Sequence record: MN850615.1
Reading direction: 5' to 3' (one strand)
Source of the DNA: Escherichia phage kvi
DNA length: 64,000 bases
Shown: positions 57,558-59,107 of the stretch, piece after piece
Numbering within the stretch: position 1 is the first letter of the stretch
Layout of the letters: each line of letters opens with the position of its first letter
The notes under the pieces: generated by a model
Seen by the model: the letters and a program-made list of their open reading frames with translations, nothing else
Told to the model about the DNA's origin: nothing
Database searches by the model: none
Position numbers and translations under genes: made by a program

Positions 57558-57893
57558 TTATCCTTTCTTAAACAAATTGCGAAGCCAGTATACAAACGGG
57601 ATTTCTTTAAACTTGAATTTCTCTATAGTTAATTCTTTAGTAGCAAGATGAATACCATAAGCATCATGTGTCACGATATGCCATTTTCTATAGTCCAAAT
57701 GTGAACAACCGTCTGGATCTAGGTTAATAAGAGTTTCTCGCTCACTAGGATTATTTTTCCACAATTTTGTAATAGGATCGCACATAATTCGACCTAGCGT
57801 ACCATGAATAATCTCACAACGGTAAAGTTTTCCAGCAGTGAGATAGGCGCACCCGTCATAGTCGGTATAAACAAACACTTCTTTAACACTCAT
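57558..57893 (-). CDS. small paralog 1 of three (111 aa; ..CSHLDYRKW..)
   Basis: track ORF 57558..57950 trimmed to ATG 57893 with AAGGAG SD. Confidence 0.5.
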   Translation of the reverse strand: MSVKEVFVYTDYDGCAYLTAGKLYRCEIIHGTLGRIMCDPITKLWKNNPSERETLINLDPDGCSHLDYRKWHIVTHDAYGIHLATKELTIEKFKFKEIPFVYWLRNLFKKG

Positions 57894-57921
57894 TTTAATA
57901 CTCCTTTGTTTCGATGGGGGT

Positions 57922-57950
57922 ATATTACTACCCCCGTTTTGTTGTGTCAA
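57922..57950 (-). promoter_or_regulatory. sigma70-type promoter (TTGACA-N17-TAATAT), -10 inside ggggg..ccccc inverted repeat
   Basis: rc of 57945..57950 TTGACA; rc of 57922..57927 TAATAT. Confidence 0.5.
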
Positions 57951-58211
57951 CTACTTTTTCAAGATTTTTTTAATTGCGTTCCAAAGACCTTTATTCTCAG
58001 GTTGTTTTGGTTCTTCGATTAGTGTCCATGTTCGACCGTCTAAGTGTGCACAATTTTTAAGACAAATAAAAATCTGGTGTCCCTTATCATCACGGATATA
58101 ACCACTATTCGCAAATCTTTCATGTGGTGTATATTCATACAGTGTATTTGGTGTAATATACTTGCGGTTACTATAAGGTGTCATCACATACATCATGGTA
58201 CTAACTCCCAT
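57951..58211 (-). CDS. small paralog 2 of three (86 aa; ..YEYTP..GYIRDDKG..CAHLDGRTW..)
   Basis: track ORF. Confidence 0.45.
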   Translation of the reverse strand: MGVSTMMYVMTPYSNRKYITPNTLYEYTPHERFANSGYIRDDKGHQIFICLKNCAHLDGRTWTLIEEPKQPENKGLWNAIKKILKK

Positions 58212-58387
58212 TTATCACCGCGAAGATGAGAACATCCACCATCAAGAAGTATCGTAATACGATAACCTATATCATCTTTGATGTAACCGATTGTCGGTGG
58301 ATTTTCGTCGTCTCGTGTCGGGGTAAAATCATACATCTTTCCGGGCGTAATATCTTGTCCTTTATTGCTATTGGTATAAACTTTCAT
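58193..58387 (-). CDS. small paralog 3 of three (64 aa; ..YDFTP..GYIKDDIG..CSHLRGDKW..)
   Basis: track ORF. Confidence 0.45.
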   Translation of the reverse strand: MKVYTNSNKGQDITPGKMYDFTPTRDDENPPTIGYIKDDIGYRITILLDGGCSHLRGDKWELVP

Positions 58388-58408
58388 TTTCTTAATCTCC
58401 TATATTAA

Positions 58409-59107
58409 CTAACCACGGGTATAGTGTTCCAGAACAACTGTCAGATGAATATATTCTAATAGATCTTTCCAAAAGTCAACATCTGGTTCTTCCGGCATAC
58501 CGTTTTTCTTTGCCTCTTCACGCGCGAGTTTAACACGCTCGTAGAGATCTTTCAATTCTTCCCGCACATTATCAAAGGTTCTTTCTCCTAACTTACACGC
58601 TAAAATAGAAGAACGTCGCGCGAGCGGGAATTGTAAATCACCTGTCTGATAGATTTCAAGTAGCTGATAACCAACACGCAGAGCATGAGAAAGATCTTTC
58701 CAGTTACTGAAATACTTTTCAGATTTGGCTACCTGCTTTTTGAGATAGCCAGACAAACCCCACATACCAACATGATAGAATTTATCGCGATGTGTTCGGA
58801 TGTATTCCCATTCTCTGGAGGATTCAACCAACATGTTACTAGGCGCGTGCACCATGTCAATAGCGCCGATATCGCCTTTACATGCCAGGTTGATAAACCG
58901 TTTTAGACTGAACATATTAACGTCAATATCGTCTTTGGTGTTCTTGATACCTTGACCGCTAGTGCTTTGATCATAGTGTTCTTTCATCGATCCTAAGATA
59001 ATTTCTTTCGCAGTCGGAACAAAGATACCACGATAATCTTTATCGGAGTTTTCAGTATCAAGGCCGTATAAGTGAGATCCGAAAACCATTTTAACCATTG
59101 TATGCAT
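58409..59107 (-). CDS. Pol-beta-superfamily nucleotidyltransferase-fold protein (232 aa)
   Basis: N-terminal ..VFGSHLYGLDTENSDKDYRGIFV.. (G-S..D-x-D) and downstream acidic strand ..IGAIDMVHA.. Confidence 0.55.
   Translation of the reverse strand: MHTMVKMVFGSHLYGLDTENSDKDYRGIFVPTAKEIILGSMKEHYDQSTSGQGIKNTKDDIDVNMFSLKRFINLACKGDIGAIDMVHAPSNMLVESSREWEYIRTHRDKFYHVGMWGLSGYLKKQVAKSEKYFSNWKDLSHALRVGYQLLEIYQTGDLQFPLARRSSILACKLGERTFDNVREELKDLYERVKLAREEAKKNGMPEEPDVDFWKDLLEYIHLTVVLEHYTRG

Follow-up and report, generated by a model that had tools for sequence, protein, structure and literature searches.

A compact RlaP-family nucleotidyltransferase gene and three small tandem paralogs of a widespread phage domain lie side by side in Escherichia phage kvi

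In a 64,000-nucleotide stretch of Escherichia phage kvi (sequence record MN850615.1; called the window below), an open reading frame (ORF) carrying a Pol-beta-type nucleotidyltransferase (NTase) signature is followed by three small genes, which we call sp1, sp2 and sp3. The NTase is an ortholog of T4 NrdC.11 and a member of the RlaP family (PF10127), and the three small proteins are true paralogs that belong to a large family of phage proteins. An earlier note on this DNA had recognised neither component and had read them as a linked module of an NTase and a diversified set of small proteins. All four genes are already annotated in RB49-like Krischvirus phages, the NTase as a nucleotidyltransferase in RB49 itself, and we consider it probable that the NTase and the small genes are two unrelated things that happen to be neighbours in a hyperplastic region of early genes. 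The source phage is an RB49-like T4-type coliphage of the genus Krischvirus, whose DNA over the 2.7 kb around the NTase locus is 96-98% identical to RB49, Phi1, JSE, GEC-3S and about 55 other deposited genomes.

The two motifs by which the NTase had been picked out, FGSHLYGLDTENSDKDYRGIF and AIDMVHA, occupy residues 9-29 and 82-88 of the protein, and the Pol-beta assignment is confirmed by profile searches. RlaP is its sole Pfam match (E = 2.3e-14; score 54.1 bits, cut-off 23), extending to position 198 of the 249-position model, and the protein matches the PHROG cluster phrog_388, described as 'nucleotidyltransferase', with an E-value of 2e-79. It is 100% identical to NrdC.11 of RB49. In an alignment of 12 homologous sequences that share 40-57% identity, the GS/DxD/D catalytic residues (G10, S11, D22, D24 and D84), and thus all three active-site carboxylates, are invariant; the C-terminal half also aligns, with W136, K137, S140, H141, R144 and Q148 invariant. 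PF10127 is present in all 120 of the homologs listed. A phmmer search of the PDB sequences returned no relative, nor was PfRlaP, a characterised family member described below, found there.

Homologs of the NTase occur in 1,620 phage records, including most of the T4-like phages that infect enterobacteria, Aeromonas and Acinetobacter, together with mycobacteriophages and Bacillus phages. By 2006 the literature had listed nrdC.11 among the ORFs conserved in T4-like phages and had noted its COG3541 nucleotidyltransferase domain. Other T4-like NrdC.11 proteins are 42-57% identical to the Krischvirus protein, and the genomic position of Krischvirus nrdC.11 differs from that of T4. The proteins differ in length as well: T4-type NrdC.11 (300-340 amino acids) has an insertion of about 100 residues after residue ~128 which the 232-residue Krischvirus form does not have. 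Distant homologs such as mycobacteriophage LeBron gp32 are colinear with the shorter form, and it is therefore the T4 type (T4 nrdC.11 lies at L002 7436-8446) that holds an insertion. Krischvirus NrdC.11 is in this sense a natural minimal phage RlaP, and might be a convenient subject for asking if phage RlaP mends tRNAs after attack by nucleotide-excising anticodon nucleases.

What such an enzyme might do is indicated by a preprint of December 2025 on two Pseudomonas RlaP enzymes, PfRlaP and PaRlaP, which labelled only RNA among E. coli macromolecules (PMC12776372). These enzymes prefer Mn2+ and add one or two nucleoside monophosphates to RNA 3'-OH ends, favouring the 5' half of a cleaved-tRNA mimic, and they partially rescued aminoacylation of a tRNA short of one anticodon-loop nucleotide. 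The crystal structure of PfRlaP has a C-terminal helical domain that forms the substrate cleft, and the same work places T4 NrdC.11 in the RlaP sequence network (PMC12776372). T4 NrdC.11, PfRlaP and PaRlaP have in common with the Krischvirus NTase the Pol-beta core with its GS, DxD and third Asp. By analogy with these two bacterial enzymes, the three carboxylates of the Krischvirus NTase, together with a divalent metal, would carry out the untemplated addition of 1-2 nucleotides at the 3'-OH of a broken RNA, the most likely substrates being tRNA halves left short of a nucleotide by a host anticodon nuclease. Phage Pnkp and Rnl1 could then reseal the tRNA into a usable form. No RNA ligase gene adjoins the NTase, whose neighbours are vs.6 and the small genes with regB. 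Pnkp (pseT) and RNA ligase 1 (rnlA) are encoded in RB49 about 75 kb from nrdC.11, which fits the reported genome-level co-occurrence of RlaP with RNA ligase and repair genes in phages; it is to an association of this sort that the RlaP family owes its name. On the analogy with the bacterial enzymes it is plausible that the NTase by itself has a counter-defence role, restoring tRNAs that anticodon nucleases have damaged. Besides pseT and rnlA, RB49 has a second small polynucleotide-kinase-like gene, RB49p229 (L020 14334-14810), located beside nrdB.

The earlier note had also mentioned the CD-NTase fold and signalling modules. In a signalling explanation the NTase would produce a nucleotide second messenger, to be sensed or sequestered by the small proteins. 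The NTase is not a CD-NTase. It shares with the CD-NTases of cyclic-oligonucleotide-based antiphage signalling systems (CBASS) and with other signalling NTases the Pol-beta fold superfamily and nothing further: it is assigned to another family, it matches no CD-NTase or defence-system profile in PADLOC, and Pfam and other profile searches found no effector or sensor family among its neighbours. Its homologs are NrdC.11-type proteins of T4-like phages, the characterised RlaP enzymes label RNA and not small molecules or proteins, and sp1-3 match no sponge or sensor family. With the shared fold signature as the one point in its favour, we regard the signalling explanation as very improbable.

The relationship among the three small genes, which the earlier note had drawn from a common motif, is borne out. 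When the six-frame ORFs of the window (1,029 in all) are compared, sp1 and sp2 find each other with an E-value of 1e-9, while sp3 is marginal in pairwise comparison. An independent profile, made from 150 family domains with Krischvirus-type sequences excluded and run against the ORFs of the window, matches sp2 (1e-25), sp1 (1.5e-22) and sp3 (9e-16), the next best ORF having an E-value of 0.11; the homology is thus well beyond chance. The motif quoted in that note, Y(E/D)(Y/F)TP..GYI(R/K)DD.G, is complete in sp1 and sp2, but sp3 keeps only the outer frame (Y..TAGK.Y ... I.L..GCSHL...W.IV) and does not have the DD.G element. The most likely start of sp2 is the ATG at 58196, which gives 81 residues and overlaps the stop codon of sp1 as ATGA; homologs begin MMYVM. 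For sp3 the most likely start is the ATG at 57893, located behind AAGGAG and giving the same 111 residues as the RB49p095 annotation, and a TTG at 57950 is an unlikely one. A candidate fourth paralog at 7936-8193, which a profile of 3 sequences picked up with E = 0.0024, vanished with larger profiles, has no family motif and was rejected. T4 Vs.3, Vs.4 and Vs.5, considered as diverged homologs of sp1-3, showed no similarity (best E above 0.5) and were likewise rejected.

The ratio of non-synonymous to synonymous substitution (dN/dS) is 0.2-0.36 for sp1 and 0.1-0.4 for sp2, compared with 0-0.15 for most neighbours, with many synonymous differences, and each small gene has a Shine-Dalgarno sequence. 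The small genes are therefore real genes under purifying, somewhat relaxed, selection; values below 0.4 give no sign of positive selection. Across five related loci amino acid identity is 86-91% for sp1, 85-98% for sp2 and 40-99% for sp3, while the flanking genes are mostly at 96-100%. That the small ORFs are chance reading frames in intergenic DNA might be suggested by their shortness and by annotations that call them only hypothetical, but the selection on them, the confident fold prediction for sp1 and the spread of the family over 512 clusters in diverse phages leave this explanation a negligible probability. The Shine-Dalgarno regions of all three small genes (58388-58408, 58197-58215 and 57894-57912) contain GGAG, the RegB cleavage motif, which is absent from those of the NTase (GAGGG) and regB (AAGGAT).

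The predicted structure of sp1 resembles an SH3-like barrel: the model is a confident one, with a predicted local distance difference test score (pLDDT) of 91, and SH3 domains are the structures that match it best. Sp1 is acidic (isoelectric point 5.1) and would be the bare domain, while sp2 and sp3 would be the same domain extended by cationic amphipathic C-terminal helices. The terminal segments of both are cationic and amphipathic, with hydrophobic moments of 0.47-0.69 (0.69 for the sp2 tail).

Searches of Pfam, NCBIfam and PADLOC were uninformative for sp1-3, with spurious FosA fragments in the case of sp3. Their PHROG matches are phrog_6261 and phrog_15978 only, both clusters of undescribed function; all three proteins match phrog_6261, as do 39 members out of a diverse set of 40. 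Pfam has no family for the domain, with marginal, sub-threshold matches to DUF6501 in 6 of those 40 members, and a literature search on the PHROG identifiers, the RB49 locus tags and DUF6501 found nothing on these small proteins. A word-indexed search returned Krischvirus-like relatives only; the wider family needed a full profile hidden Markov model (HMM) scan of 1.84 billion representative proteins, which found 512 clusters at E <= 1e-3, most of them stand-alone proteins of 57-75 residues. The family consensus, MKVkTdY.gc.YlTaGK.YEv...g.IiDD.G..i.I.l..gCaHLdG..WEvVE, is acidic, and the conserved frame Y..T.GK.Y / I.DD.G / C.HL / W runs through the family, sp3 being a member without DD.G.

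Family members occur in several arrangements. Two to four copies of the domain are fused in the proteins P0140, P0142, P0144, P0217 and P0250, and many members have an N-terminal family domain followed by unrelated C-terminal tails. Searched with the family consensus, members were found in 142 records, including Vibrio phages of ~138 kb, Drexlerviridae (Bas11 among them) and a 42-kb Shigella phage, and at nine loci outside Krischvirus they sit in stretches of small early or accessory ORFs that carry no annotation. The Bas11 member is bas11_0078 (L010 2995-3189; E = 1.7e-16), with weak possible extra copies in the adjacent bas11_0079 (L010 3186-3623; E = 1e-4) and in bas11_0048 (L012 4579-4944; E = 2e-4). 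The fusion partners of longer members have no informative domains apart from one weak match: in P0223 (190 residues) the family domain is joined to a segment resembling Tad2 (Thoeris anti-defence 2, PF11195) with an E-value of 7.8e-4, below the Pfam cut-off.

On these grounds the three small genes would be tandem duplicates of a widespread, phage-specific SH3-like beta-barrel domain of about 60 residues. Their products would be dispensable early proteins of host interaction, with the conserved Y/GK-Y/DD-G/C-x-H-L/W surface binding a protein of the host or of the phage, and the tails of sp2 and sp3 may serve localisation or a second contact. A more ambitious proposal is that this undescribed domain, an acidic beta-barrel of ~60 residues that occurs in 512 clusters as single copies, tandem arrays, fused repeats and tailed forms, is a modular host-targeting or anti-defence adaptor with three specialised Krischvirus copies; we put it forward tentatively and would not expect it to be right.

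A related explanation is that the small proteins act on host immunity, either as anti-defence proteins or as triggers of defence, as Gp54 of Bas11 does in triggering the CapRelSJ46 defence (PMC11578894). The family is restricted to phages, its genes are located in accessory early regions and diverge more quickly than those around them, and P0223 carries the sub-threshold Tad2-like match. Gp54 (PDB 9axb) is itself comparable, being a small (~65 residues), dispensable phage beta-barrel without an assigned native function, and it contains a local G.EI.I.L..C.H.G..W.V motif also found in the sp family. This motif is located in the middle of Gp54 but at the C-terminus in the sp family, however, Gp54 is a six-stranded barrel, and bas11_0078 is a gene separate from gene 54. 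Homology of Gp54 to the family was rejected as non-significant, with an hhalign probability of 3.7%, an HMM score of 3.8 bits and an empty search of the PDB sequences with the family profile. Together with the low dN/dS, the lack of a PADLOC match and a literature search that gave no experimental data for any family member, this leaves a role as anti-defence protein or trigger unlikely in our estimate.

If the four genes formed one module, the small beta-barrels could be accessory or specificity subunits of the NTase that take it, for example, to the membrane, to ribosomes or to particular RNAs. Some SH3-like and Sm-like barrels do bind RNA or proteins. The four genes adjoin one another in the same orientation, with 21 nucleotides between NTase and sp1 and the ATGA overlap joining sp1 to sp2; hairpin/promoter composites flank the unit, and its order is kept in a relative whose NTase is 57% identical. 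The distribution of the two components is very different, however. Homologs of the NTase are spread over 1,620 phage records, while tblastn with sp1 or sp3 finds the Krischvirus-type small proteins in 58, all Krischvirus, leaving about 1,560 records with NrdC.11 homologs and no such small proteins. None of the nine non-Krischvirus loci has an RlaP gene near the family member (within flanks of 1-8 kb). Conversely, no family member was found in the 20-kb region around T4 nrdC.11 or in a 135-kb phage contig that encodes a 319-residue RlaP. In T4 nrdC.11 has other neighbours, lying ~6 kb away beside mobD, and the unrelated genes vs.3-vs.5 fill the slot between vs.6 and regB. The acidity of sp1 and of the family consensus speaks against RNA binding, and in 52 of the 58 genomes NTase identity is 99% or more while sp1-3 range from 40 to 100%, which is not a picture of co-evolution. 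We judge it quite unlikely that the NTase and the small proteins form a dedicated module; the simplest reading of these comparisons is synteny inherited within one lineage, in a region known for gene shuffling.

Several points weigh against the reading of two unrelated components, and against the roles suggested for them. We detected no terminator between NTase, sp1 and sp2, sp1 and sp2 are translationally coupled, and the order RlaP-small-small followed by the promoter/stem-loop cassette described below is kept in the metagenomic relative; co-expression and some functional connection within the Krischvirus lineage are therefore possible. The comparison of the small-protein family with RlaP outside Krischvirus covers flanks of 1-8 kb. 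The assayed RlaP enzymes are the two from Pseudomonas, which fall in another sequence cluster and are described in a preprint (PMC12776372), and the literature reports no activity of NrdC.11 itself or of any phage RlaP member. The putative C-terminal helices of sp2 and sp3 are drawn from hydrophobic moments and from a poor AlphaFold2 model of sp3 (pLDDT 52).

The DNA between the genes suggests how the small genes may have come to lie here. Between sp2 and sp3 we find what appears to be a promoter(early)-stem-loop (PeSL) cassette: it is intergenic, adjoins ORFans, and combines a sigma-70 consensus that has an AT-rich tract upstream with a GGGG..CCCC stem-loop. The promoter sequence is preceded by AAAAAAATCTTGAAAAAGTAG and overlaps GGGGGTAGTAATATACCCCC, and the GEC-3S record annotates a promoter there; no further promoter-like site was found between sp3 and regB. 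PeSL cassettes have been described as modular sites of ORFan shuffling in the hyperplastic regions of RB49 and phi1 (Arbiol et al. 2010, PMC2839356). The cassettes in that work have the same type of promoter and stem-loop, are likewise intergenic by ORFans, and show replacement and chimera variants in close relatives, although the paper does not mention regB, nrdC.11 or the sp ORFs. The cassette between sp2 and sp3 recurs unchanged in a metagenomic contig (L018 5740-5791) that encodes an NTase of only 57% identity. The window has two further hairpins of a similar kind, GGGAGTAGTAA.ATACTCCC, at 44857-44876 and 45767-45786, where none is expected by chance.

Variants of the small genes are consistent with such exchange. 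At the position of sp3, the related loci L003-L005 carry an allele of 103 residues (L003 6001-6312) with ~40% identity overall and an identical tail KFKFKEIPFVYWLRNLFKKG; its first ~273 nucleotides have no DNA similarity to sp3 yet encode a divergent copy of the same domain, while its last 63 nucleotides, by regB, are 97% identical. P0005 (83 residues), from a metagenome contig of 3,081 bp, is a chimera, sp1 in its N-terminal half and sp2 in its C-terminal half and tail, which suggests recombination between the tandem paralogs. Small genes may thus be gained, lost and swapped by recombination at PeSL cassettes, with the one between sp2 and sp3 a candidate site.

As a discovery the locus is of little weight, the NTase being an annotated ortholog whose family chemistry was recently described. 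What value it retains lies mainly in how broad the small-protein family is: a large uncharacterised phage domain family with members in the model phages RB49 and Bas11 that is worth a genetic screen.

Table 1. Coordinates in the window of the NTase gene, the three small genes, their neighbours and the predicted regulatory elements between them.
Feature	Position	Strand	Description
NTase, NrdC.11 ortholog	58409..59107	-	232 aa; compact RlaP-family Pol-beta nucleotidyltransferase; Pfam PF10127, phrog_388
sp1, RB49p097 ortholog	58193..58387	-	64 aa; acidic protein, predicted small beta-barrel; GGAG Shine-Dalgarno
sp2, RB49p096 ortholog	57951..58196	-	81-aa paralog; phrog_15978, E 8.6e-61; cationic amphipathic C-terminal tail GLWNAIKKILKK
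sp3, RB49p095 ortholog	57558..57893	-	111-aa divergent paralog; phrog_6261, E 1.7e-37; family beta domain (predicted) and conserved tail KFKFKEIPFVYWLRNLFKKG
regB endoribonuclease gene	57131..57553	-	Pfam REGB_T4, E 3.2e-48; directly 3' of sp3
vs.6, GrcA-like glycyl-radical protein	59194..59610	-	Pfam Gly_radical, E 2e-16; upstream neighbour of the NTase
Terminator-like hairpin and promoter-like site	59138..59184	-	AAGCCAATCC..GGGTTGGCTT then a T run; after vs.6; overlapped by TTGGCT-17-TATGAT
PeSL-type cassette (predicted)	57913..57950	-	TTGACA-17-TAATAT promoter with GGGGGTAGTAATATACCCCC stem-loop; between sp2 and sp3

All four genes are on the minus strand at the positions given by the earlier note (Table 1), where 3' of the NTase means lower coordinates, and the order along that strand is vs.8, a 41-residue ORF, vs.6, NTase, sp1, sp2, sp3, regB, vs.1, vs, tk.4 and tk. 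The hairpin/promoter composite between vs.6 and the NTase was found by a pattern scan, and a terminator is annotated at the equivalent place in the GEC-3S record; it is predicted to form the upstream boundary of the NTase-sp1-sp2 unit. Vs.6 is unusually divergent for the region, with amino acid identities of 83-96% compared with 96-100% in most neighbours. Some relatives have an HNH homing-endonuclease gene between vs.6 and the NTase (L003 4247-4774 and L018 3951-4547), an insertion absent from the source phage (between 59107 and 59194) and from RB49.

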